The notes beneath the pieces were generated by a model. It was not told the DNA's origin, searched no databases, and saw nothing but the letters and a program-made list of their open reading frames with translations. Positions 6,202 to 26,858 of a stretch of DNA of 30,017 nt are shown here, one piece after another. Position 1 is the stretch's first letter; the number at the start of each line of letters is the position of its first letter. A program made the position numbers and the translations under genes. The DNA is from Bdellovibrionota bacterium (GTDB lineage Bacteria; Bdellovibrionota_C; UBA2361; OMII01): positions 1 through 30,017 of the forward strand of contig JBIJBE010000041.1 of assembly GCA_044345405.1 (NCBI GenBank), given 5' to 3'.

Positions 6202-6521
6202 GGCAACTCCAAGGATATAAAACTATGTTTATGCGGGAACGGGCCTCCCGATGGGGCCCTATCATGGTTTATTACTTTCGCAGGGCGCAAGAACAAAGTA
6301 CAGCTAATGTCCGTAGGTATTTCGTGCCGACTACCCCTTTACGCGAGATGTTTCTGGGGGACTCAGGCCGAGCAACGCCGTGCTGTGATTGCATCGCCTC
6401 GAGACACGCTAAAATCCTTAACGTATCTCAGCGGATACCGGAGGGAGGGAAGCAATGCAGTCCTAGTGGTTGCTGTGACGACTCCTACCTCACAGGAACA
6501 AACGCCGCACGAGGATAGAGA

Positions 6522-9290: not shown

Positions 9291-10148
9291 TTACTCCGAC
9301 GACTCCGTTGTTATTTCCTTCACACTCTCTGGCGCTTGCGCCGTATCTTGATTCTCACTAGTAGGCTTGGCTAAGAAGCGAGCGTCCAGGTCGTCGCCCC
9401 CTTTAAGGTGAGCGAGCGCTTCCTCCGCCGCGTTCTGCTGAGAAGCTTTCTTGGTCGCTCCCCTGCCCCGCCCCACTACCTGACCATCGACCTCAACGAT
9501 AGAGACGAAGATCGGCTGATGCTCTGGGCCCTCAACGCACTCAAGGCGATAGACAGGAGCCTCACTACCGGCGGCGTGCAACGCCTCTTGAAGCTCGGTC
9601 TTCGGATCCCGAGGCGTCACATTGACGAGTCTCGTTCCAAGAAGCCGCTCAACACACGCGCGAGCGATCTCGTATCCACCCTCGCGATAGATAGCGCCGA
9701 CTACGGCCTCAAGAACGTCAGCGAGGATAGAAGCCCGATCAGAACCTCCACTCGCGAGCTCTCCGCGACTTAACCGAATAAACTTTCCAAGCTCAAGCTC
9801 ACGAGCGATCTCAGCGAGCGAAGCGGTATTCACGAGCGCGGCTCGCATCTTCGAAAGCTCACCTTCGCGAGCCTCAGGATGGTGATCGAGTAAGAGGTGC
9901 GCGACCGCGAGATCGAACACAGCGTCGCCGAGGAACTCCAACCGCTCATAGTCGGTCTTCTCCCCTCGCGCGTGAACCGAGCGGTGCGTGAGCGCGCGCT
10001 CAAGCCACGACTTCTCAGTAAACGTGTACTGAAGACGGGTCTCTACCTCACTGTAGTGTTCTTGTCCGAGCGGCTCAGCGACTGGACGGCGATTCTTGTT
10101 CGAATCGTCTCCGCTCTCGGAGGCGACCTTGAGGATTCCAAATCTCAT
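9291..10148 (-). CDS. rnc: ribonuclease III
   Basis: ALTHRS, signature YERLEFLGDAV, dsRBD DPKTELQE...GPEH...KKASQQNAA. The start codon is uncertain because of an N-terminal extension. Confidence 0.97.
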   Translation of the reverse strand: MRFGILKVASESGDDSNKNRRPVAEPLGQEHYSEVETRLQYTFTEKSWLERALTHRSVHARGEKTDYERLEFLGDAVFDLAVAHLLLDHHPEAREGELSKMRAALVNTASLAEIARELELGKFIRLSRGELASGGSDRASILADVLEAVVGAIYREGGYEIARACVERLLGTRLVNVTPRDPKTELQEALHAAGSEAPVYRLECVEGPEHQPIFVSIVEVDGQVVGRGRGATKKASQQNAAEEALAHLKGGDDLDARFLAKPTSENQDTAQAPESVKEITTESSE

Positions 10149-10324
10149 CTGTAAAGCTCCCGTGCTGGAAGCCTCACAATCACAAAAGTAGCCATCCGGA
10201 GTAGGGTAATGGCTCTCTTTGGTGATTGAGAGGGGGTTAACTGTTGCTAAGGGAGTGTACCTGGTCGAGGGGGGCTATTCAACCGAACGCAACTGGTTGA
10301 ACATATTGGAATTAAGGCGACTAC

Positions 10325-10478
10325 TGAGACGTAAGACGTAAGACGTGGGACGTAAGACGTAAAACGTGAGACGTGAGACGTGAGACGTGAGACGTGAGAC
10401 GTGAGACGTGAGACGTGAGACGTGAGACGTGAGACGTGAGACGTGAGACGTGAGACGTGAGACGTGAGACGTGAGACG
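10325..10478. repeat. heptamer tandem array, 22 units, including 16 perfect TGAGACG (10367-10478)
   Basis: Read directly: TGAGACG, TAAGACG x2, TGGGACG, TAAGACG, TAAAACG, then (TGAGACG)16. Confidence 0.97.
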
Positions 10479-10590
10479 ATTATCGTCAACGATCAACGCC
10501 TTACGTCAATACCTAACCGTCAATCGTCGTCGTCAACGAAACTTTGCGGAACAAGACTCCATGGGTTCTTTGCTCTCCGTACGTTCGAAG

Positions 10591-10718
10591 TCGTTCACGA
10601 TGACGTCGACGTAGAACGTAGGACGTAGAACGTAGGACGTAGGACGTAGGACGTAGAACGGTACCCGTCAACCGGGGGGGGACGTCTATACGTCATCCTG
10701 AACCGTCATCGTCAACGA
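10591..10718. repeat. ACGT-core element: 15-bp inverted repeat enclosing a 7-unit TAG(G/A)ACG array
   Basis: TCGTTCACGATGACG (10591-10605) pairs with CGTCATCGTCAACGA (10704-10718) at 14/15 positions. Heptamer array at 10612-10660. Leader CGATGACGTCGACGT at 10598-10612. Confidence 0.88.
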
Positions 10719-11065
10719 GGTTTGGCTGAGAGCTTTGAGAGCATTTGAACGATTCGAAGAACAAGGGACCGATGAGCTTCAAGTAGCGAGGGATCTGCTA
10801 GGTTGAGTGCTTTTGCGCAGTCGATAATGGCACTACATTCAAGAGCAGAGCCGCGGGCGATCTCGAAAAATCGTCTCCGCTCCAACAGTGAGCACTTGCC
10901 GGATCCTTCGGCGATATTCAGTGGCACAGAGAGGCTAGCTCTCCTCAGCTGATCTCCGAGATGAGCAAATCCCTTCGGTAGGCTGTCGTTGAGCTGACTA
11001 GCTGCGGCAAGAAATTCCATGGAGCACTGATAGACATCAAGCTTTTGGTATCCAAAGTCATTCAT
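10712..11065 (-). CDS. four-helix-bundle protein (23S rRNA intervening-sequence protein-like)
   Basis: FGYQKLDVYQ, DQLRRASLSVPLNIAEGSG and FFEIARGSALEC are typical family motifs. Likely start is ATG 11065 (117 aa) rather than 11146, which lies inside the upstream repeat. Confidence 0.92.
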   Translation of the reverse strand: MNDFGYQKLDVYQCSMEFLAAASQLNDSLPKGFAHLGDQLRRASLSVPLNIAEGSGKCSLLERRRFFEIARGSALECSAIIDCAKALNLADPSLLEAHRSLVLRIVQMLSKLSAKPR

Positions 11066-11127
11066 GCCGTTGATAATCGGAGACAGCGAATGAAAGTTGC
11101 TTGCAGTGAAGTGAAAAAGGGGAAGCT

Positions 11128-11214
11128 CGCTGACGTTGACGTCCACGCAGGACGCACAACGAAACTCGTCTACGGTAACCGGTCTACGTCAGGCGTTTTA
11201 CGTCAACGTCAGCG
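11128..11214. repeat. ACGT-core hairpin with a 15-bp perfect inverted repeat
   Basis: CGCTGACGTTGACGT (11128-11142) and ACGTCAACGTCAGCG (11200-11214). Lies between the mnmA stop and the four-helix-bundle start. Confidence 0.88.
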
Positions 11215-11227
11215 TTCCCACCGCCCC

Positions 11228-12370
11228 CTACTTCGCAATCCGTCCCCCAGCCAACAGTTCCTCATTCTGAAGATCGTACACCACCGCGGCCTGTCCTGGT
11301 GAAATCGCGGCCCACTCATCGTGCCAAGTAAACGAGCACGTATCTTTGTCGATCACCTTCATCCGGGCCCGCACGCCATGGTGTCGAGAACGCACCTGCA
11401 CGATGACATCGAGTTCAAAGCCTGACTCCCCTGCCCCAATCCGTTTGATGAGCTGAGGATTTACCCAGTGCATCTCCCGCACCGTAAAGTTTTCGCGCTT
11501 CAGATCTTCTCGCGAACCGAGGATAACGCGATGAGTAGCGGGATCAAGATCGACAACATACAGGGGTTCCGAAAGCCCTCCGATGTTAAGTCCTTTGCGC
11601 TGACCGACGGTGAAGCGATGAATTCCCTCATGCTCGCCGATCTTGGTGCCGTCCTTGAGAACGAAATCACCCTTCTGTCGACGGCCGCCAATTTTAGCGA
11701 CGAAGTCCTGAACACTTCCCGCAACGAAACAGATATCTTGGCTCTCGGGCTTATCAGCGGTTACGAGCCCTACCTCGCGCGCGATCTCTCTAATCTGAGG
11801 CTTTGTGTAATCTCCAATCGGGAAGATCGTTTTTCCGAGTTCATCCTGACGACAGGTATACAAGAAATAGCTTTGGTCCTTATCGCGATCGACACCACGC
11901 AAGAGATGGAATCCATCAGCGGATTCTCTGATACGAGCGTAGTGACCTGTTGCGACGTGTGAGCACCCGAAACTGAGTGCTCGCTCACGCAGCTCTCGAA
12001 ACTTCACCCGACTGTTACAATCGATACATGGGTTCGGCGTCATTCCGAGCTGGTAGGTTTCAACGAAGCGGTTGATAACCTCTTTCTCGAAGTACGCCTC
12101 AAAATCCACAACGTAGTACGGCATGTCGAGCTTCGCCGCCACGCGCCGCGCGTCGTTGAAATCAGCGGGAGAGCAACACGTTGCTTTACTATTGTCTGAG
12201 CAGCTTTTCTTGTAGTCCCATACTTGCATCGATACACCGACGAGCTGTGCGCCCGTTTTCGCGAGAAGATACGCGGCAACGGAGGAATCAACTCCTCCGG
12301 ACATGGCGACCACGATAGACCTATCGGTCATCGACATTGACGTTAGCTTTTCAGCGGCTTCAGTGGACAT
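11228..12370 (-). CDS. mnmA: tRNA 2-thiouridylase MnmA
   Basis: AMSGGVDSS, TPNPCIDCN, ATGHYA, KDQSYFL, ESQDICF, FTVGQRKGL, ISPGQAAV. Confidence 0.97.
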   Translation of the reverse strand: MSTEAAEKLTSMSMTDRSIVVAMSGGVDSSVAAYLLAKTGAQLVGVSMQVWDYKKSCSDNSKATCCSPADFNDARRVAAKLDMPYYVVDFEAYFEKEVINRFVETYQLGMTPNPCIDCNSRVKFRELRERALSFGCSHVATGHYARIRESADGFHLLRGVDRDKDQSYFLYTCRQDELGKTIFPIGDYTKPQIREIAREVGLVTADKPESQDICFVAGSVQDFVAKIGGRRQKGDFVLKDGTKIGEHEGIHRFTVGQRKGLNIGGLSEPLYVVDLDPATHRVILGSREDLKRENFTVREMHWVNPQLIKRIGAGESGFELDVIVQVRSRHHGVRARMKVIDKDTCSFTWHDEWAAISPGQAAVVYDLQNEELLAGGRIAK

Positions 12371-12380
12371 ACAGAACTCA

Positions 12381-13526
12381 CTATCCTTTTTGAACGACCG
12401 TACGCATCCGTGTCACCGCGTTGGTCAGCGCGCTCACAATATGTGGCACCGTAGCAAGCGGAAGGTCCGCTCGAAAACTCACTCGGATTGTAGAGCGCGT
12501 TCGCTCCTCATCCTGCCCCATCGCCATCAGGACGTGTGACGGCTCAGGCTTTCCAGAGGTACACGCGGCGCCGGAAGAGATAAGCACACGCTCAAGATCC
12601 ATCGCGACGATCAGGTCGTCAGCGCGAACACCTGGAATGTAGACGCTTGAGGTATTCGGAAGTCGCGATGCTCGAGCGCCGTTGATGATGCAGTCAGGAA
12701 GTTCACGAGACACGAGCGACTCAAATTCGTCCCTCAGCTCCTTCATCACCTCAGATCGAGAGGGAAGCTCCGCCGCGATCATATCGCACACCGCCCCAAA
12801 CACAGCGATCCCGAGAACGTTCTCTGTTCCTCCACGAAGTTTACTCTCCTGCGAGCCACCGAGGAGGAGCGGCTCAACGTGAACGCCTTCGCGGATACAC
12901 AACGCTCCTGTCCCAGAGAGCGCTCCTACCTTGTGAGCGGAGATCGTCATCAGATCAACCCCAAGCTCCCTCATCGAAACGCCCCCCTTACCGAGAAGTT
13001 GCGCGGCGTCGGTATGGACCAGCGCCCGAGGAGCGATCTGACGAACCCGCTCCACTATTTCAGCGATAGGATTGATCACACCCGTCTCGTTGTTGGCGGT
13101 CATGATGGAGACCAGCGCGGTATCTGAGGTTACCACCGCGGCGACAGATTCAGCCGTGATAACACCTTCGGCGTTAGGAGACACAAAGGTGACCGCTCGT
13201 CCCCGTGCCGCAAGGCGTCGTAGCGGCTGAAGGATGCAGGGATGCTCTGTGGACGCGGAAACTATCGGACCGCTATGGTTAGCGACGGCTGCGATAACGG
13301 CATTGTTAGCTTCGGTCGCGCCGGAGGTGAACACGAGGGTGTCCTTATCCCCTGCCCCAATCAATCGCTTCACGGAGGCTCGAGCCTCCTCTACCGCCGC
13401 CCTCGCCCGCTGACCTCCCCGATGAAGGGAGCTTGGATTACCTACGGACCCAAGGCACGAGGAGATAACCCCGCGAATTCTCTCATCAGGCGCGTACGTG
13501 GCGTTGGCGTCGCAATCGATAATCAC
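12381..13526 (-). CDS. cysteine desulfurase (IscS/NifS-like, group I)
   Basis: GNPSSLH, FTSGATEANN, ANNETGVI, HTDAAQ, PLP-lysine SAHK, GGTEN and catalytic SSGAACTS. Directly upstream of mnmA. Confidence 0.93.
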   Translation of the reverse strand: MIIDCDANATYAPDERIRGVISSCLGSVGNPSSLHRGGQRARAAVEEARASVKRLIGAGDKDTLVFTSGATEANNAVIAAVANHSGPIVSASTEHPCILQPLRRLAARGRAVTFVSPNAEGVITAESVAAVVTSDTALVSIMTANNETGVINPIAEIVERVRQIAPRALVHTDAAQLLGKGGVSMRELGVDLMTISAHKVGALSGTGALCIREGVHVEPLLLGGSQESKLRGGTENVLGIAVFGAVCDMIAAELPSRSEVMKELRDEFESLVSRELPDCIINGARASRLPNTSSVYIPGVRADDLIVAMDLERVLISSGAACTSGKPEPSHVLMAMGQDEERTRSTIRVSFRADLPLATVPHIVSALTNAVTRMRTVVQKG

Positions 13527-13593
13527 GGCTAAAAAGCCTCATTTTATTTAGGGATTTGGGCGTCTACCGACCTTCCAGATAGGGTAACTTACA

Positions 13594-13881
13594 ATGGATG
13601 CTCGCATTACGCAAAGCATCGGAGTAGTAGGCGCCCAGGTGTTGAACAGCCAATTTGCGGCAAATCAGGTCCGAGCGACCCAGGTAGCGCAGCAAGCGGG
13701 AGTTCAAGCGAGGGACAACAAAGCCCGAGCGAGCCAAAGCGCCACTAAAGTAAGCACCAACGATAAGGAACGTTCTATAGACCAGGATGGTCGCGTTGAA
13801 GGAGCCTTCGCCGACCAAGAGATCAACGATGGATCTCACGACGGCAAAGCCCCCGTTCAACGGTTGAACCGTGTAGCTTAA
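13594..13881 (+). CDS. small Gln/Ala-rich hypothetical protein
   Basis: 95-aa ORF divergent from the desulfurase. Fills the gap before the ComEA-like gene. Confidence 0.6.
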   Translation: MDARITQSIGVVGAQVLNSQFAANQVRATQVAQQAGVQARDNKARASQSATKVSTNDKERSIDQDGRVEGAFADQEINDGSHDGKAPVQRLNRVA

Positions 13882-13929
13882 TCCGGTCGCAGACGAAACA
13901 TTTTGGAGAGATAGCCGATTGGTCACCGC

Positions 13930-14337
13930 ATGTCGTGGCGCACTACCGGTCTATCTATCCTTATCCTTCTCGCATTCCTCGCGATGAGGATCCCTCCGCT
14001 CCTGTCCCCACCTCCTGAGGTTCAACCATCGTGGCTTCTCCCTCCTTCGTACGACGATCCTGAAGGACGCTTAGCGATGGGATACAAACTGCCGCTTCGG
14101 TGCGCCGACGTGTGGAGCCTCGAGCTCCTCAAAGGGATCTCCGATACCCTCGCGTTTGAGATCGTGGCGAAACGATCTGAGATTGCGCGAAGCGTTCGGA
14201 GCGAGGGCGAGCTCAACGCGCTCCAGCACGCGCACGGAATCGGGAAAAAAACCGCGAGCAAGCTTCTCCCCTATTTAGACCTTACGGAGAGGTGCGAGGT
14301 ATCTGAAAAATTCGAGGTGTGGGACGATCGGCCGTGA
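13930..14337 (+). CDS. ComEA-like membrane-anchored helix-hairpin-helix DNA-binding protein
   Basis: N-terminal hydrophobic anchor. Two HhH-like motifs, LELLKGISDTLAFEIV and LQHAHGIGKKTASKL. Confidence 0.7.
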   Translation: MSWRTTGLSILILLAFLAMRIPPLLSPPPEVQPSWLLPPSYDDPEGRLAMGYKLPLRCADVWSLELLKGISDTLAFEIVAKRSEIARSVRSEGELNALQHAHGIGKKTASKLLPYLDLTERCEVSEKFEVWDDRP

Positions 14338-14356
14338 CACATCGCGCCAGGTGAAT

Positions 14357-14495
14357 ATCGTCCCCTCCTCTGGTGCACCGTACTCTATGCACGCAGCCTG
14401 AGCGCCGCACCGTAAATCAGAAATAGTTTCAGCTACCCTTCGATATCAACGGCTTCGTCTATTTTTGAAAAGTAGGGTGCACCAGAAGGAAGGGG
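14357..14495. mobile_element. 139-bp MITE-like element, copy 1
   Basis: 137/139 identical to 16123-16261. Internal terminal inverted repeat TCTGGTGCACCGTACT (14369-14384) / AGTAGGGTGCACCAGA (14471-14486). The right end is followed by a partial tandem duplication (GGGCACCAGAAGGAAGGGGG). Confidence 0.75.
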
Positions 14496-14512
14496 GGCAC
14501 CAGAAGGAAGGG

Positions 14513-14737
14513 GGCCCCAAATGAAGAGCACAGATGCGTATCATCACCTTCATCCAAGACACCCACTGCCACCTCGCCAAAGCGAAGCGACGGCGGGCAA
14601 TCAAAGACATCATGAAGGCACAAGGTATCCCCAACTTTCAGGCACCTCCACCTATTCCTAAGTTCATCGATACTGTGGAGGCTGTCGATGAACTCCCCTG
14701 CTACGACTCCTTTGAGCCGCCTACTGATGACTTCTAA
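14513..14737 (+). pseudogene. C-terminal remnant of an IS91/ISCR-like (Y2) transposase
   Basis: In frame G-P-K-stop-R-A-Q-MRIITFIQD...AIKDIMKAQGIP...APPP resembles the CPxC-xx-MRIIAFIxD..I..IL..LG..PPP tail of IS91-family transposases. The upstream part is missing. Confidence 0.6.
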
Positions 14738-14892
14738 AACCCGCTTCCTCTGATCCATCTCGGCGGAACAAGTATCGGTCCACTACTACAGTTCAATTAC
14801 TTACAAAAAAGCGATTGGTCGTCCTTATTTACTCACAGGTTCTGTAACTATGGTGTTCCTTCTAGTAAGCACACGAAATCGCGCTATCCTTA

Positions 14893-15306
14893 ATGTTCGA
14901 AAAATCGTACACTATACGCATGGAGCATCTTCTCGTCTCGTACTTAGCACAAGATCTGACCTTCAAGATCATACGCGGCCTCTTCTCTGGCGGAGCGCCC
15001 CGTCACCTACGAGACCTTGCGCGAGACTATGCGGCCTCCCCTGCCGGCGTCGCCGACGTGATCAAACGACTAAAGGACGCTGGCGTTGTGGTCGAGACAA
15101 GACAGGGAAATCGACGGCTCATTAGCCTAAAGATAAGCGAACGAGAACACGAATCACTTGCGAGCCTCTTTGCCGTGTACGAGGCTCATCTCGTAAGAAC
15201 GAGGGCTAAGCGCATCAACCGTCACCCAGATCGCGTTGCAAACAAACTTGCAGATATGAACGAGATGTACGAATTCTACCGAACAGCCAAACAGAGGCTC
15301 CGATGA
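14893..15306 (+). CDS. winged-HTH DNA-binding protein (putative antitoxin/regulator)
   Basis: HLRDLARDYAASPAGVADVIKRLKDAGVVVETRQGNRRLI is a wHTH pattern. Alternative start ATG 14920. ATGA overlap with the next gene. Confidence 0.8.
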   Translation: MFEKSYTIRMEHLLVSYLAQDLTFKIIRGLFSGGAPRHLRDLARDYAASPAGVADVIKRLKDAGVVVETRQGNRRLISLKISEREHESLASLFAVYEAHLVRTRAKRINRHPDRVANKLADMNEMYEFYRTAKQRLR

Positions 15307-15908
15307 GACTTACACCACTCAAAGCGTTACAGAGAACGGTCGCGGCTCTGTCGGAGTTGCCCTGTCGTTTTTGTCTCGTTGGAGGGCATGCAGCGAGTCT
15401 CTATCGCTCTCAGGAGCGCTTCACTAAGGATGTCGATTTCGCACTTGTCGCTGATGCTAAGGGCAAGTCTCGCGCAATTGCGTCGCAAGCGATCAAAAAA
15501 ATAGGCATGAAGCCGGTTGCGGGGTTTATGGTGTTAGGCGATACCGCACGATCGCAACGCGCTCTATGCATGGTCACCTCGGAGCCACCGGCTTCTGAGC
15601 TCACGGGGATGGTAGATATACTGCTACCAGAAGTGCCCTGGGTTTTAGAGGCCGTTGGACGGGCACAAGACAACCTTATCGATCTTGGATTCGCAAAGGT
15701 TCCTGTAATCACCGCCGAGGATCTGATCCTTGCCAAGTGCTATGCAGTGCGAAACTCCCCCGACCGATTTCAAGATCTCGATGACTTGAAGCAGCTCTTT
15801 CAGGATGTAAGAGACCTCGACACCGACTACCTTCGGCGCAGGTTCGTTGAGCTAAAGCTCACGATACCAGAGCAGATCAGGCAGTTTGCGCCGGATGTGC
15901 TCGGGTAA
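15303..15908 (+). CDS. nucleotidyltransferase (AbiEii/DUF6036-like), putative type IV toxin
   Basis: LVGGHAASLY...RFTKDVDF (GG..RxTxDxD Pol-beta-like motif) and EDLILAK...RFQDLDDL. Confidence 0.82.
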   Translation: MRLTPLKALQRTVAALSELPCRFCLVGGHAASLYRSQERFTKDVDFALVADAKGKSRAIASQAIKKIGMKPVAGFMVLGDTARSQRALCMVTSEPPASELTGMVDILLPEVPWVLEAVGRAQDNLIDLGFAKVPVITAEDLILAKCYAVRNSPDRFQDLDDLKQLFQDVRDLDTDYLRRRFVELKLTIPEQIRQFAPDVLG

Positions 15909-16003
15909 TGGATAGCGGCTCTTCGTGGAATCGAGTGGGTAACACTCGGTAGTACGTTTCAGCTGTAGCCGGGCTACTTTTATGAAGCGGGAGAAAGCGA
16001 CCA

Positions 16004-16110
16004 CGATGACGTCGACGTCTGACGTACCACGGCAACCGTCGACGTCGTACGTTCTACGTCAACGTCAACGTAGGACGTCAAACGGTTTACGTCATTCGCA
16101 AACGTCATCG
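16004..16110. repeat. ACGT-core element without a long array
   Basis: Starts with the leader CGATGACGTCGACGT and ends ACGTCATCG (inverted copy of the start). Internal ACGTCA/TAGGACG units. Confidence 0.8.
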
Positions 16111-16122
16111 TCTGCGAAGCGC

Positions 16123-16261
16123 ATCGTCCCCTCCTCTGGTGCACCGTACTTTATGCACGCAGCCTGAGCGCCGCACCGTAAATCAGAAATAGTTTCAGCT
16201 ACCCTTCGATATCAACGGCTTCGTCTATTTTTGAAAAGTAGGGTGCACCAGAATGAAGGGG
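16123..16261. mobile_element. 139-bp MITE-like element, copy 2 (direct orientation)
   Basis: Differs from copy 1 only at 16151 and 16254. Offset 1766 bp. Confidence 0.75.
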
Positions 16262-16328
16262 CTTCGTAAATGAGCACACGATACAGCCCCGCAGGGAACG
16301 CCCCCAAAGTACCAAGTACTAACCCCGA

Positions 16329-17894
16329 CTAGGGCGCAACTCGGACGCCACGACCACCAAAATCAATCAAGCGTTGTGCCCATGTCCGCGTTGCATTGTA
16401 ACGATCCGAGAGTCGTGCATGACCACTACCTAAGCTGAACACACCTCCACGAGAACCCGAGCCCGTAGCTCCAGTTCCAGGCCATGTGCTAACATTAGGA
16501 TTCCCACTGCTATCAAGTACCCCATTGCCGTGATTGCGGCCTGCGAAGAGACGTCCGGTGCTATTTCCTACCGTGACGGGTCGCTCATAAAGATTCCCTG
16601 ACAGGTCCATCGCTCCATAGTAGCCAGCGCCAGCCGCTATCCGCGTCGCTACACCATACGCAAAGCTCCCCACCCTTACGGGGCCTGGAACAGATGTGTG
16701 ATTATTAAACGCCATATTTGCTCCACTCTGGGCCCGCTCAGAGACAAGACCGGGATTCGAGATGCTCGTGGCTTGCGTAAGGCTCGTGCTACCCCACGCA
16801 TACTCTCCCGAAACAGCGCGGTACGGCCCTCGACCACCTCGCTCGAACTCTAACTCACTCATCGGGCGCAACCCGCTCCAATCGAGGTACGCTGTAAGAT
16901 CTGCCCATGAAATGTAGTTCACCGCGACACCCTCATACGTTGCCCCACCTCCATTGTCAGGCAGCGTCGCATCACCGGAAGACCAACTTACGTTGTTGCG
17001 AGCGGTTAAATTATCGCTATTCTTTCCAGTTGCTGAAGTAATATCTCGAGTGCTTTTTTGCGTTGTTGTGAGGGTATTAAAAAACGCTACCCACTGTCCT
17101 TGAGAGAGCTCACCCTTCATCATGTAGAACGCCTGATAGCCCTTGGGGAACTCTGTCGGTATAGTAAACTGAGCTCCGGCTGCATCTCCATTGAGTACAC
17201 TGCCGGGATAGTAATACTCAGCCGCTTTTTCAGCTTGTCCCGTCCCTGTGCCTTGAGCATTTGCAGGGCTCGACATAACTATCTCACCCTCACTACCGAT
17301 CCACCACGGGTCGTTGTCAGTGCTCCCCTGCTTAAAGCTATAGGCTGACGTTGCGTTGTCTCCGGCGAAAAATCCACCCTGCGGCACGTACACCATCTCT
17401 ATCCCAAAGACCCGGATATCAACCGTATCGCTTCCAGTCACACCGTCCTGCGAGTAGTTCCAACTTAAACTCGTTCCAGTCGTGGAGAAAGTTCCTACTC
17501 CATCACCACTCCGATACAAGAACACTCCCACGCCAGGATTCGTAGCGATATTGAACGCTGAACTCGTATCAGGATACCCAACTGAGATGGTTGCAGCGGT
17601 TCCTGAACCGGCTGAGTGTCCGGTATCGTTTAAGCTTGCGTGTGCCCAGTTGCCGCCGTTCTTTCTAAACTTTATAAAGATCCACGCCGCGTCCCAATTG
17701 TTTGGCGCAGGGGCACCCGGTGCTGCAGTGCGCCAGGAGTTCGTCCACGTAGCATCGAAGGTAACTGTCGTGCTACCGCCGCTTAACGTACCACGTTGTA
17801 TGTTGGTGACATTGATACCGCTGCACGAGCCCTCGAGCACGACCAAGAGTTCGAGGGCAACCGCTATCAAGAGTGCCACGCAGGGAAATCTCAT
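16329..17894 (-). CDS. exported FGE-sulfatase/SUMF1-like (C-type lectin fold) protein
   Basis: Signal-like N-terminus. WDAAWIFIKFR, EMVYVPQGGF, WSGLRPMSELEFE, YAWG, MDLSGNLYE and terminal RGG...R.SDR...FGGRGVR. Confidence 0.88.
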   Translation of the reverse strand: MRFPCVALLIAVALELLVVLEGSCSGINVTNIQRGTLSGGSTTVTFDATWTNSWRTAAPGAPAPNNWDAAWIFIKFRKNGGNWAHASLNDTGHSAGSGTAATISVGYPDTSSAFNIATNPGVGVFLYRSGDGVGTFSTTGTSLSWNYSQDGVTGSDTVDIRVFGIEMVYVPQGGFFAGDNATSAYSFKQGSTDNDPWWIGSEGEIVMSSPANAQGTGTGQAEKAAEYYYPGSVLNGDAAGAQFTIPTEFPKGYQAFYMMKGELSQGQWVAFFNTLTTTQKSTRDITSATGKNSDNLTARNNVSWSSGDATLPDNGGGATYEGVAVNYISWADLTAYLDWSGLRPMSELEFERGGRGPYRAVSGEYAWGSTSLTQATSISNPGLVSERAQSGANMAFNNHTSVPGPVRVGSFAYGVATRIAAGAGYYGAMDLSGNLYERPVTVGNSTGRLFAGRNHGNGVLDSSGNPNVSTWPGTGATGSGSRGGVFSLGSGHARLSDRYNATRTWAQRLIDFGGRGVRVAP

Positions 17895-18140
17895 GTGTCT
17901 GATATCGGTAAGATTGGTGAGGGCTCTTAAGGGGGAATATAAGAAAGGGAGGGCGCGGGGGCAAGTAATTGAAATTATTCCCCCAACCCTAACCTGGAGG
18001 CTCGCTACTCGAAAGTCCTCAGGGCATCGACTCGTTGAATCTAGCTCCGGATCAAGCCGAGCCTTGAGCAGCTGTCGTTATTGAGAAATGAGGGTAGCGC
18101 GGATACGGGGGGAAAAATATTCGCGAGCCGGCGCACGTTC

Positions 18141-18238
18141 CGGCGACCAGCCTGTCCCGAGCACAGTCGAGGGAGGAATGGTCGCCCTCCCTATACCGCA
18201 ACCTCGCACCACGGGAGGGCGGTCATTCCTGACCGCCG
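18141..18238. repeat. REP/BIME-like structured repeat, copy 1
   Basis: Two inverted palindromic units. GGGAGGGCGGTCATTCCTGACCGCCG (18213-18238) is identical to 26705-26730. A partial third unit lies at about 18254-18295. Confidence 0.85.
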
Positions 18239-18331
18239 CGTTGCGAAACGCGGAAAATATTCGCGAGTGGCGCACATTCCGGCGACCAGGAATGGAATAA
18301 AACCGGTGTCAGTAATGACTGACAGGCATTT

Positions 18332-19693
18332 CTAAGCTTGCGACTCGCGACCAGTGAGGAAATAACCGGCCGATATTGTCGCTAGAAGCACAAGCCCAAT
18401 CCACACCGTCACCCGTGTAGCCTCAGCGTAGACGAGTATTGCCACAATACCGGTGAGAAAGAGAGCGGCGAAGACCCCTGAAAAGGGCCATGCCGGCATC
18501 CTCCATTTCGGTAGCGGCTGGCCCGCGGCGTTTTGAGCCTGACGGAAGCGCCAATGGGTGTACAGGATCGCCATCCACACAAGGATGCCGATGAAGGTAA
18601 CAGCGGAGGTGAGATACTCGAATGCCTCGGAGGGAGTAACGAAATTGATGAGAACCCCGATGAACAAAAAGAGGATCGTGATGTACATAGCCCGGGCTGG
18701 CACACCGGACTGAGAGAGGTGTCCAAATACAGCGGGGGCGTGCCTGTTGTTGGCGAGCGTATGGAGGATACGTCCACTACTGAAGATCCCACCGTTGCAG
18801 GATGAGAGCGCCGCGGTGATCACAACGAAGTTTATGAGACCCGCCGCTGTCTTCAATCCCATCCCCTCAAATACCTGCACGAACGGGCTGCCATTCACCC
18901 CGATCTCGTTCCACGGAAATATCGACAGAATAACGAGCAGCGCTCCTACATAAAAAATGATGATGCGCCAAACGAAGGAATCGATCGCCATGGGGATAGT
19001 TGTCTCGGGTGACTTTGCCTCACCAGCCGCGATACCAATCATCTCTACGCCAACATACGCGTAGATAACCATCTGCATCGCGAGCACCAGACCTAACGAC
19101 CCGTTTGGCATAAAGCCTCCATGAGCGGTAAGATTAGAGAGCCCGGCAGGTTGCCACACGCCAGGAAAACCAAAGATAATAACGAAAGCTCCCACCGCGA
19201 TCATCAGCAAGATCGTGGCGACCTTGATCAGGGCGAACCAGAATTCGAACTCACCAAAGACCTTAGCGGCGGTGAGGTTAATGCCGCCCATCACGAGAAT
19301 GGAGAGAAAGGCCCACAACCACTGTGGCGAACCGGGGAACCAGAACTCCATGTAGATTCCAACAGCGGTGACCTCGGCGATGGCGATAATACTCCAGTAG
19401 AGCCAGTACCCCCAGCCAACAAGATAGCCGAGAAAGGGGCTCACATACGTCGTGGCGTATTGCGCGAAGGACCCCGTAACAGGCGCGTGTGCCGCCATCT
19501 CACCCAGCGCGCGCAGCACCAAGAACGCTACGATCCCCGCTAGGGTATAGCCGATAAGGATGGAAGGTCCGGCGAGCTTGATCGCCGAGGCTGAACCAAG
19601 AAAGAGCCCTACCCCAATCGTGGAGCCAAGCGCTAAAAGACGCATCTGGCGCACGCCGATTGCGCGTTGAAACCCAGTATTTTCAGGTGTCAT
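18332..19693 (-). CDS. APC-superfamily amino acid permease (AAT family, ProY/YifK-like)
   Basis: ALGSTIGVGLFLGS, ALGEM, FGEFEFWFALIKV, GVEMIGIAAGEAK and SPFV. About 12 hydrophobic segments. Confidence 0.93.
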   Translation of the reverse strand: MTPENTGFQRAIGVRQMRLLALGSTIGVGLFLGSASAIKLAGPSILIGYTLAGIVAFLVLRALGEMAAHAPVTGSFAQYATTYVSPFLGYLVGWGYWLYWSIIAIAEVTAVGIYMEFWFPGSPQWLWAFLSILVMGGINLTAAKVFGEFEFWFALIKVATILLMIAVGAFVIIFGFPGVWQPAGLSNLTAHGGFMPNGSLGLVLAMQMVIYAYVGVEMIGIAAGEAKSPETTIPMAIDSFVWRIIIFYVGALLVILSIFPWNEIGVNGSPFVQVFEGMGLKTAAGLINFVVITAALSSCNGGIFSSGRILHTLANNRHAPAVFGHLSQSGVPARAMYITILFLFIGVLINFVTPSEAFEYLTSAVTFIGILVWMAILYTHWRFRQAQNAAGQPLPKWRMPAWPFSGVFAALFLTGIVAILVYAEATRVTVWIGLVLLATISAGYFLTGRESQA

Positions 19694-19966
19694 GTTGTCC
19701 CCTTACCCACTACCGTTAAAGTCTCCGTGGAGAGGGTACGTGGTTTGAGCGGCCGTTGCCAGGCTATTTTCTCCATTCCGCCGGCAAAGGGGGCACGCTT
19801 CCATTTCTTTAAAAAATTACAGCCCCCTTGTAACTTATGGCCGGGGTATTCAAAAATTCTCCGTCACTGATGAAAGGAAGTTGAGAAAACACTCACCAGA
19901 GACACCGTTGACTCACGTCACCTATCGCAAGTAGCGTCGGTCTATAGAAATAGAGGGAACCCTGGT

Positions 19967-21454
19967 ATGTCTGACTCAATCCATCTCGGTAACGCAGGTT
20001 CGGACCGTAAGGATCTTATCCTCGCCATGGCGAATCGCCACGGGCTTATCGCTGGAGCGACGGGCACGGGTAAAACCGTTACCCTGCGGGTGGTCGCCGA
20101 GGGCCTCAGCAGGAATGGCGTTCCGGTCTTCATGGCGGACGTGAAGGGTGACCTCGCCGGACTCTCGCAACCTGGCACCCTCTCCGAGAAGCTCTCGGAA
20201 CGACTCGCCTCCCTCGGCATTGAGAATTGGACCCCCGAGGCGTTCCCGGTCGTATTTTGGGACGTCTTCGGTGAGCAGGGTCACCCTATCCGAACAACCG
20301 TATCAGAGATCGGCCCCGCCCTCCTGAGCCGTCTCCTCAACCTTAACGATACCCAAGCTGGCGTCCTCACACTCGTCTTTAAGGTCGCCGATGATTCAGG
20401 GCTCCTCTTGCTCGATATCAAAGACCTCCAAGCGATGCTCGTGCACGTTGGAGATAACGCCAAGGACTACACCCTGAAATACGGCAATGTTTCCTCCGCG
20501 AGTATCGGAGCTATCCAACGCGCCGTGCTCGCCCTTCAGGAAGCCGGTGGAGACAAGTTCTTCGGCGAACCCGCTCTCAACATCGACGACCTCCTTCAGA
20601 CCGATTCGAAGGGGCGTGGCGTAATCAACATCTTGAGCGCCGATAAGCTCATGATGTCTCCCCTCATCTACTCAACGTTCTTGTTATGGCTCCTCTCTGA
20701 GCTCTTTGAGCGTCTCCCTGAGGAGGGAGACCTCACGAAGCCAAAGCTTGTCTTCTTCTTTGATGAGGCGCACCTCCTCTTTAACGACGCGCCGAAAGCG
20801 CTCGTTGAGAAGATCGAACAGGTGGTGCGATTGATCCGATCCAAAGGGGTCGGGGTCTACTTTGTTTCGCAAAGCTCAACGGATATCGCCGATTCGGTAC
20901 TTGCGCAGCTCGGGAACCGGGTACAACACGCCCTTCGAGCATTCACCGCGAAGGATCAGAAGCAGCTCAAAGCGACCGCCGAGACCTTTCGATCCGATGG
21001 CTCATTTGATCTTCAAGCGGCGATCGGAGAGCTCGCGATCGGCGAAGCGCTCGTCTCCCTCCTTGATGAGAAAGGAACTCCAACGATCGCGCAACGCGTC
21101 ATGATAGCCCCACCCTCGAGTAGATTGGGCCCTATCACCCCAGCGGAGAGAAACGCGACGATCTCGTCCTCGGTAGTCAGTGGCGTCTATGAAAAGAGCG
21201 TCGATCGGGAATCCGCCTACGAGATCCTTACCAAAAAGATCGAGGAGGAATCACCAAAAGAAACCAATGAGCGGAACGAAGGCTCAATGCTCGATTCCCT
21301 CTTCGGCGGCGGCTCATCATCGGGAGGCCGACGCCGGCAAAATCCCCTTGAAGCGATGATCTCAAGTGCTGCCCGCTCTATCGGAAGCCAGATCGGACGG
21401 AGCATCACTCGGGGAATATTCGGTTCCGTTTCGGGACGACCGCGGCGAAGATAA
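19967..21454 (+). CDS. DUF853 / HerA-like P-loop ATPase (YjgR-like)
   Basis: ANRHGLIAGATGTGKT, ADVKGDL, FFDEAHLLF, RLIRSKGVG, QLGNRVQHALRAFT. Confidence 0.93.
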   Translation: MSDSIHLGNAGSDRKDLILAMANRHGLIAGATGTGKTVTLRVVAEGLSRNGVPVFMADVKGDLAGLSQPGTLSEKLSERLASLGIENWTPEAFPVVFWDVFGEQGHPIRTTVSEIGPALLSRLLNLNDTQAGVLTLVFKVADDSGLLLLDIKDLQAMLVHVGDNAKDYTLKYGNVSSASIGAIQRAVLALQEAGGDKFFGEPALNIDDLLQTDSKGRGVINILSADKLMMSPLIYSTFLLWLLSELFERLPEEGDLTKPKLVFFFDEAHLLFNDAPKALVEKIEQVVRLIRSKGVGVYFVSQSSTDIADSVLAQLGNRVQHALRAFTAKDQKQLKATAETFRSDGSFDLQAAIGELAIGEALVSLLDEKGTPTIAQRVMIAPPSSRLGPITPAERNATISSSVVSGVYEKSVDRESAYEILTKKIEEESPKETNERNEGSMLDSLFGGGSSSGGRRRQNPLEAMISSAARSIGSQIGRSITRGIFGSVSGRPRRR

Positions 21455-26340: not shown

Positions 26341-26560
26341 ATCGTTGACGATGACGTCGACGTAGGACGTGAATCGTTTAACGTTGACGTGGGACGTTGG
26401 ACGTTGGACGTGAGACGTGAGACGTGAGACGTGAGACGTGAGACGTGAGACGTGAGACGTGAGACGTGAGACGTGAGACGTGAGACGTGAGACGTGAGAC
26501 GTGAGACGTGAGACGTTAAACGGTGTGCGTCTTATGTCAACATCAAACGTCAACGTAGGA
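26341..26560. repeat. ACGT-core element with (TGAGACG)15
   Basis: Leader at 26349-26363, degenerate heptamers, then 15 perfect TGAGACG (26411-26515), then a CGTCAA-type tail. Confidence 0.95.
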
Positions 26561-26734: not shown

Positions 26735-26858
26735 CGATGACGTCGACGTAGGACGTCAAACGTGAGACGTGAGACGTGAGACGTGAGACGGTGTACGTCT
26801 TACGTCAACGTCTTACGTCAACGTCAACGTCAAACGTCACACGTCAAACGTCAACGAT
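26735..26858. repeat. ACGT-core element with (TGAGACG)4
   Basis: Leader at 26735-26749, 4 units at 26763-26790, ACGTCA(A) tail ending CGTCAACGAT. Confidence 0.92.

Follow-up and report, generated by a model that had tools for sequence, protein, structure and literature searches.

An IVP gene packaged between hairpin-forming heptamer repeats in a Bdellovibrionota genome: probable resident copy of a widespread cassette class

Introduction

Why does a gene of the 23S_rRNA_IVP family sit in a run of housekeeping genes, closely surrounded by hairpins and heptamer arrays, and do this gene and these repeats belong together? The question is raised by the window, i.e. the whole stretch of 30,017 nucleotides from a Bdellovibrionota bacterium that was analysed here, in which a small IVP gene lies between mnmA and rnc. 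Its four-helix-bundle family (PF05635/TIGR02436) is very large, but to our knowledge no function has been established for it; it is chiefly familiar from rRNA intervening sequences (IVSs) and from its likeness to Avd. In the main texts of openly available papers, no report was found that connects the family with tandem arrays at its flanks, with MITEs or with passengers of ISs. A first, sequence-only reading of the window regarded gene and repeats as a cassette that was dropped into the housekeeping run, and proposed that the protein may bind or help spread its cognate repeat, with gene-less copies acting as empty or non-autonomous sites. Here, we compare the locus with public relatives and argue that it is probably the resident copy of a widespread, IVS-like and MITE/MIC-like class of IVP cassettes.

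Materials and methods

The comparison set comprised 78 public loci with IVP relatives (1,145,390 bases in total), all from genomes other than that of the window. A hidden Markov model (HMM) built from 120 homologues yielded 97 IVP-like ORFs in these loci and the window. For the flank test, the 350 nt upstream of each full-length gene were aligned to the reverse complement of the 350 nt downstream, with shifted pseudo-genes from the same loci and the flanks of other predicted genes as controls. In the loci, arrays of period 6 or 7 were counted if they had at least 3.5 copies; the tandem arrays of the window were located with Tandem Repeats Finder. The sharing of array units within a locus was evaluated by 1000 permutations against other genomes.

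Results

On the minus strand, the genes are arranged in the order cysteine-desulfurase-like gene, mnmA (11228–12370), IVP gene (10712–11065), rnc (RNase III; 9291–10148) and der, with the upstream neighbour mnmA and the downstream neighbour rnc identified in a domain scan. The assignment of the gene between them as a 117-aa IVP-like gene, made before from the sequence alone, is confirmed by two profiles, both of which match the ORF at 10712–11146(−) above their cut-offs: PF05635 (Pfam; E 8.4e-22, 77.9 bits vs 33.8) and TIGR02436 (NCBIfam; 72.3 bits vs 24). Likewise, a profile of 33 IVP relatives matches a solved protein, PDB 2GSC, at E 1.5e-16, and the available part of PMC4990558, citing this structure, states that the family forms pentameric rings. 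The start codon is the ATG at 11065. Between the window and the nearest public locus (L001), the 117-codon core differs at 14, 7 and 34 sites in codon positions 1, 2 and 3, with 17 of 117 residues changed, and this third-position bias shows that the ORF is under purifying selection. In the 27 codons upstream of this ATG, the differences are spread evenly over the codon positions (10, 8 and 7, with 16 of 27 residues changed), for which reason a 144-aa ORF with a GTG start (10712–11146) was rejected as the gene. The residues R42, S46, N50 and E53 vary little or not at all among 33 sequences. The conserved motif of the family is given as GxxRxxxSxxxNxxE in the accessible portion of PMC3936711; its first position is Q39 in the window protein, not G. 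Pfam, NCBIfam, PADLOC and PHROGs revealed no nuclease or recombinase domain in the protein, PADLOC and PHROGs giving no match, and a tblastn search against plasmids (E 1e-8) likewise gave no match and therefore no independent annotated replicate.

The gene is bordered by repeats with an ACGT core, all of which are described here on the plus strand. On its upstream side, 62 nt before the ATG, lies the hairpin E6 (11128–11214), a diverged member of the ACGT-core family with arms at 11128–11142 and 11200–11214 that are complementary at 15 of 15 positions, and with a fold z-score against shuffles of −6.1 as RNA and −6.3 as DNA. On its downstream side, E4 (10591–10718) is a complete element with terminal 15-nt arms (10591–10605 and 10704–10718; 14/15 complementary), of which the right one covers the IVP stop codon (10712–10714). 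Its interior consists of a leader (10599–10612), 7.6 heptamers (10608–10660) and a centre motif (10658–10669), and its fold is less convincing (z −1.9 RNA, −3.1 DNA). Further downstream, E5 (10325–10539) comprises an array of 22.0 TGAGACG copies with 94% matches (10325–10478) and a short complementary tail ending CGTCGTCAACGA; a canonical leader is absent. The other three elements are gene-less: E3 (16004–16115), a hairpin between two convergent genes (z −5.0 RNA, −5.2 DNA), and E2 (26735–26856), a hairpin ending 9 nt from the stop of an aspartate kinase gene (z −5.6 RNA, −4.0 DNA), were both recognized by leader, centre motif and fold, while E1 (26343–26560) starts 6 nt past the stop of a glycosyltransferase gene and is composed of a leader, an array of 18.7 GACGTGA copies (26386–26516), the centre motif and a decayed tail.

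The elements share a plan consisting of a leader, (GACGTNN)n, the centre ACGGTNNNCGTC, (NNACGTC)n and a terminal stretch that is the complement of the beginning of the leader, and the termini of the family begin TCGTTGACGATGACG. The 14-nt leader GATGACGTCGACGT occurs exactly four times in the window (10599, 16005, 26350 and 26736; 0.06 in shuffles), always on the plus strand, and the centre motif occurs four times at places matching the leaders, compared with 0.33 expected. With four exact leaders in four places, the hairpin family has several copies at unrelated sites; ACGT itself is found 178 times versus 113 expected and is concentrated in the four repeat-bearing intergenic regions. The sequence-only reading had thus rightly described a perfect 15-bp inverted repeat upstream of the gene, a 22-unit array downstream and gene-less family copies, which we find at 16004, 26343 and 26735. 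Its second 15-bp inverted repeat, at 10591–10718, encloses heptamers and overlaps the stop codon as described, but is imperfect in its arms; similarly, its single ACGT-core family holds for the shared leader and centre of E1–E4, whereas E5 is leaderless and E6 diverged.

At the gene-less sites E1, E2 and E3, no IVP remnants were found, and neither were sigma-70 promoters or T-tract terminators at 10100–11300. The window contains no transposase or matching IS end, and Rfam at its gathering threshold recognizes only a tRNA-Arg in it. An 80-aa ORF at 10247–10489(−) owes its open frame solely to its passage through the heptamer array and is probably not a gene. The leader-bearing elements all lie on the plus strand, whatever the orientation of the surrounding genes, and throughout the window the GC skew is negative; the uniform orientation may be tied to the direction of replication.

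Across the comparison set, the flanks of IVP genes are often complementary to each other. The 79 testable IVP genes have a median flank score of 35, with 34 of them above 40, as opposed to a median of 20 and no score above 40 for 561 shifted pseudo-genes (99th percentile 33.4, maximum 40), and a median of 20 with four scores above 40 for the flanks of 678 other predicted genes. The 99th percentile of the shifted controls is exceeded by 41 of the 79. Copies in one genome are not independent, and we therefore also give the count per assembly: an IVP gene that scores above every shifted control is present, at least once, in 26 of 58 assemblies. The strong loci belong to eight named phyla (Myxococcota, Bdellovibrionota, Acidobacteriota, Planctomycetota, Bacteroidota, Gemmatimonadota, Omnitrophota and WOR-3), as labelled by record titles or by the tree, and the taxonomy of metagenome-assembled genomes (MAGs) may be wrong. 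The window scores 37, between the 99th percentile and the maximum of the shifted controls. Its outer ends (10597–10632 and 11180–11215) match inversely at 29 of 36 positions, and each flank also folds on itself; the flanks are two separate hairpins and not one split stem. Two layouts can be distinguished: in Sorangium, Anaeromyxobacter and a Myxococcota MAG, the ORF is located in the loop of one split hairpin, and in Rubripirellula, Neorhodopirellula and the window, it is located between two complete hairpins in direct orientation. The strongest of the 678 control genes, a 199-aa ORF without a Pfam match (L078, 6727–7326; inverted repeat score 115), may represent another kind of hairpin-bracketed small gene.

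The arms of these flanks consist of tandem arrays. Of 193 arrays with a period of 6 or 7, 118 are found at most 300 nt from an IVP match, an 8-fold enrichment (p 2e-80) given that IVP genes and their flanks make up 7.6% of the bases. At least one side carries an array in 55/84 IVP genes versus 46/787 control genes, and both sides do in 23/84 versus 2/787. A period of 6 (93 arrays) or 7 (25 arrays) is found in 118 of the 124 arrays near IVP genes, compared with 75 of 140 distant ones; periods 3, 8 and 9 are absent near IVP genes and present elsewhere. With gene boundaries taken from the HMM and a crude ORF picker, the 3′ arm starts at most 25 nt from the stop codon in 25 of the 34 strong loci, and in the window it overlaps the stop. 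No array is present within 200 nt of 27 of the 84 IVP relatives, and one clade of head-to-head IVP gene pairs lacks arrays altogether. Such diverged pairs without flanking arrays (L034, 9579–10333 and 11355–12124; also L043, L046, L053, L062 and L074) cluster in separate clades of the tree and stand for another architecture within the family.

The array units vary by lineage (for instance CGTGGT, ACCTGG, AAACTT, ATTCTC and AATCGTG; ACGTAGG in the window and L001) and follow the IVP tree, in which a well-supported clade of the ACCTGG type spans Myxococcota and Acidobacteriota. This agreement fits joint inheritance of gene and arrays, but is no proof of co-evolution, because relatives share labels on any tree. 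Of 67 distant arrays (more than 300 nt away), 25 have the same unit as the arrays beside the IVP gene of their own locus, as compared with 3.4 on average and 9 at most in the permutations. ORF-less hairpins with a left array, a short loop and a right array occur in L022 (6590–6800), L031 (6420–6590) and L020 (1750–1910), and parallel E1–E3 of the window. A second repeat family is seen in L005 beside an ACGT-type one (1194–1325): its long (GCTTGCT)n heptamer arrays are found at 6288–6436, 11179–11285 and 13025–13120, one of them gene-less and the others 172 nt from two weak IVP-like ORFs (11457–11765 and 13292–13600).

At which level the arm complementarity is kept can be asked of the mismatches in the stems. 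Those compatible with G-U pairing show no excess on the sense strand in 34 loci (65 vs 65), and selection at the RNA level is therefore not specifically supported; maintenance at the DNA level is equally possible. Furthermore, the upstream arm has no conserved polarity in base composition, and the co-orientation of IVP genes with their neighbours is not significant (40/64 upstream, 34/65 downstream).

Mobility is most directly traceable in one Myxococcota MAG, which holds nine cassette copies of 96–99.9% identity in different places, with sharp ends of similarity and, in two of the nine, a frameshifted IVP ORF. The short form, of about 520 nt, has a 29-nt terminal inverted repeat outside its hexamer arrays, and in eight of eight aligned ends the outer 22 nt of this repeat equal the left end of an IS5-family element (DUF4096 + DDE_Tnp_1), an identity with an IS that concerns this one genome only. 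At three places in the same MAG, a 1387-nt unit contains transposase, arrays and IVP gene between shared ends. The cassette of this MAG is thus both an IS passenger and a transposase-less IS derivative, and shows that the IVP-array unit can sit within transposon ends; since its ends are those of the IS5 family in the one traceable genome, a DDE transposase is the likelier mover. Cassette-limited paralogues are found in four other assemblies (L004/L010, with 95.9% identity over 558 nt; L014/L019; L035/L037; L036/L040/L051), and in several genomes the similarity of multi-copy cassettes stops at the repeat ends. Together with the inverted arrays that bracket relatives in 26 of 58 assemblies and with the recurrent ORF-less hairpins of shared unit, these multi-copy cassettes substantiate the earlier view of gene and repeats as a unit: the gene and its inverted 6–7-nt arrays constitute one unit of inheritance and duplication.

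The nearest neighbours of the cassettes are unrelated housekeeping genes, such as those for tRNA synthetases, aconitase, transketolase, FtsK and TruB, and among 126 proteins scanned, a transposase adjoins an IVP gene in only two assemblies. A general link between rnc and IVP genes was rejected, as only L049 has an rnc match, about 7 kb from its IVP gene. Several other neighbours are worth recording. An IS701-like element (DDE_5, 442 aa; 99.9% identical copies at L009 10393–11816 and L008 2427–3850) adjoins, in both places, either the IVP cassette or its IS5-family relative at the CTAG end, and may target this terminus. A Cas1-like gene (L029, 8843–9814) adjoins the Rubripirellula cassette, and a group II intron reverse transcriptase (L048, 10531–11766) adjoins a tandem IVP pair in a Chitinophagales MAG.

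How long has the cassette resided at mnmA? L001, from a MAG labelled Proteobacteria bacterium, is syntenic with the window, with identities of 79% for the desulfurase-like gene, 95% for MnmA and 85% for the IVP protein. It retains E6 in decayed form and also E4, whose heptamers are perfect and whose arm overlapping the stop codon is conserved, up to the point within E4 at which the contig ends, and the single ACGT-dense stretch flagged in its 7.9 kb adjoins the IVP gene. As L001 keeps the IVP gene together with E6 and E4, the cassette predates the split of both lineages. The notion of a cassette dropped into a housekeeping run therefore needs to be divided: the cassette is a unit, but it is old in this lineage and not a recent drop-in, the relative that carries the IVP gene after mnmA having kept the flanking repeats as well. 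The second nearest locus (L002; 73%) is located elsewhere in its genome, truncated and beside an IS5-family transposase, next to which no IS ends resembling the leader of the window were found. Syntenic pairs (L020/L022, L050/L052 and L068/L075) indicate that cassettes can stay put for long periods.

The contigs of L001 (7823–7872) and L002 end in or just past the cassette, and most of the 120 closest IVP homologues are found on contigs of 1–3 kb. The arrays probably break short-read assemblies, and such cassettes would therefore be under-represented in MAGs. Near the locus, 5.7 kb of the window (14194–19904) have no counterpart in L001, where the orthologues of 13583–14193 and 19905–21453 are only 159 nt apart; this segment, which contains a GntR-like/AbiEii pair (14893–15908), E3, a protein with an FGE-sulfatase domain and an amino-acid permease, looks like a variable island.

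Discussion

Taken together, we consider it probable, though far from certain, that a widespread class of cassettes is represented at this locus by a resident copy. In such cassettes, an IVP/S23p ORF is tightly packaged between hairpin-forming inverted 6- or 7-nt arrays, and they would be chromosomal counterparts of the ORF-bearing rRNA IVSs. The gene-less ACGT-core hairpins of the window would then be ORF-less members of the same genome-specific repeat family. Several observations weigh against this reading: in the window, the flanks are two self-folding hairpins with a score below the maximum of the shifted controls, three of the six elements lack both gene and IVP remnant, and neither a transposase nor a matching IS end is present; among the relatives, 27 of 84 have no array within 200 nt, stem mismatches, arm polarity and gene orientation give no specific backing to selection on RNA, and terminal identity with an IS was shown in one genome only. 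Such cassettes may move, or may once have moved, as non-autonomous units with a DDE transposase acting in trans. Their arms are expected to fold into long stems, either in the transcript or in single-stranded DNA, which would make an insertion inside operons tolerable, and by analogy with the rRNA IVSs, as described in the available text of PMC4990558, RNase III would cut the stem in the transcript. The IVP protein itself would be carried along as a passenger and act on the repeats around its gene, not as a recombinase but most likely by binding them. Such binding would be the simplest conjecture, and it is no more than a conjecture.

Could the arrangement instead be fortuitous? Three of the six elements of the window lack a gene; these adjoin unrelated genes at their 3′ ends and contain no IVP remnant. 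All elements moreover point the same way on a strand where GC skew is negative throughout, as might be seen in a repeat family linked to replication. The ACGT-core hairpins might accordingly be a genome-wide REP/MITE-like intergenic family, with the IVP gene merely caught between two occupied spacers. We find this quite improbable, considering that relatives are packaged in the same way in 26 of 58 assemblies, versus four of 678 control genes, that the stop-overlapping arm is conserved in L001, and that the single flagged ACGT-dense stretch there again adjoins the IVP gene. A role in host regulation, with the elements as 3′-end stabilizers or terminators, the repeat-rich 563-nt leader of rnc as an autoregulatory target of RNase III and the IVP gene as incidental, has in its favour that E1, E2 and E4 begin or end at most 10 nt from stop codons, that the stems are long enough for RNase III, and that rnc of Escherichia coli is autoregulated through a leader hairpin. 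With no T-tract terminators or sigma-70 promoters found at 10100–11300, with rnc not generally linked to IVP genes, and with the cross-phylum association with IVP genes left unexplained, we judge it very unlikely.

The proposal made from the sequence alone assigns a more active part to the protein, which would itself recognize and spread its cognate repeat, with the gene-less copies as its non-autonomous sites. It would account for array units that follow the IVP clades, including the one that spans Myxococcota and Acidobacteriota, for ORF-less copies that share the unit of the local cassette, and for the purifying selection on the ORF; moreover, Avd, a reported relative, is described in the accessible part of PMC6182149 as a positively charged pentamer needed by a retroelement. 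Yet relatives share labels on a tree even without co-evolution, no nuclease or recombinase domain was found in the protein, and the cassettes of the one genome with traceable mobility end in the termini of an IS5-family transposon; we hold this proposal to be unlikely.

Returning to the reading that we favour, a more specific version of the resident cassette can be formulated, given that other ring-shaped RNA-binding proteins read spaced short repeats. Tentatively, and with rather modest expectations, we suggest that a ring-shaped IVP pentamer may read the flanking 6–7-nt units, one per protomer, so that protein and repeats would form a self-contained module. This module might control its own hairpin folding and processing, ride different transposons, leave ORF-less hairpins behind and represent the free-living ancestor of the ORF-bearing rRNA IVSs. 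Independent of this version, the packaging rule found across eight named phyla provides the IVP family with a concrete candidate for a nucleic-acid partner. It would link ORF-bearing IVSs, stray IVP genes in operons or cas loci and some intergenic microsatellite-like hairpins to each other, and it may explain the contig breaks beside IVP genes.

How does this cassette compare with known systems? CRISPR arrays are different in that the units of the window are arranged head to tail, without spacers; IVP genes have been reported inside cas operons in PMC3936711, the available part of which does not mention repeats. REP/BIME sequences and their RAYT proteins are similar as far as intergenic hairpin repeats with many copies and uniform orientation are concerned, whereas the window has no Y1 or RAYT gene, and its elements are larger and built from expandable 7-nt arrays. 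Closer parallels are offered by MICs, MITEs and transporter ISs, IS-derived elements that carry passenger genes: the short cassette of the Myxococcota MAG, with its IS5-family terminal inverted repeats, nine near-identical copies and no transposase, is of this kind. In contrast to these, the inner layer of inverted 6–7-nt arrays is conserved and accompanies the ORF from phylum to phylum, independent of the outer ends.

Avd of the diversity-generating retroelements is likewise a small four-helix-bundle protein, and PF05635 is said to resemble it in the accessible portion of PMC10053308, on which the structural relationship asserted by the sequence-only reading rests; when PDB sequences were searched with a profile, with E values up to 1 accepted, 2GSC was recovered and Avd was not, and the relationship was thus not reproduced. 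These retroelements moreover have an adjacent reverse transcriptase, whereas none of the 28 ORFs of the window contains an RVT domain. Lastly, the rRNA IVSs of Leptospira, Coxiella and Xanthomonas harbour an ORF of the same family inside complementary ends, and IVP ORFs have also been reported in rRNA insertions of CPR bacteria (PMC11270868, available part). In Coxiella, according to the portion of PMC4990558 available, the 23S IVS consists of an S23p ORF after two to three tandem heptamers, variable in number, and RNase III cuts it at the first repeat. The cassette of the window, by comparison, lies between mnmA and rnc in a stretch in which Rfam detects no rRNA, and it is flanked by two self-contained hairpins and a 22-unit array. 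A mobile origin of the ORF-bearing IVSs was, as the discussion in the same part of PMC4990558 recalls, proposed long ago, and the cassettes described here would be their chromosomal counterparts.
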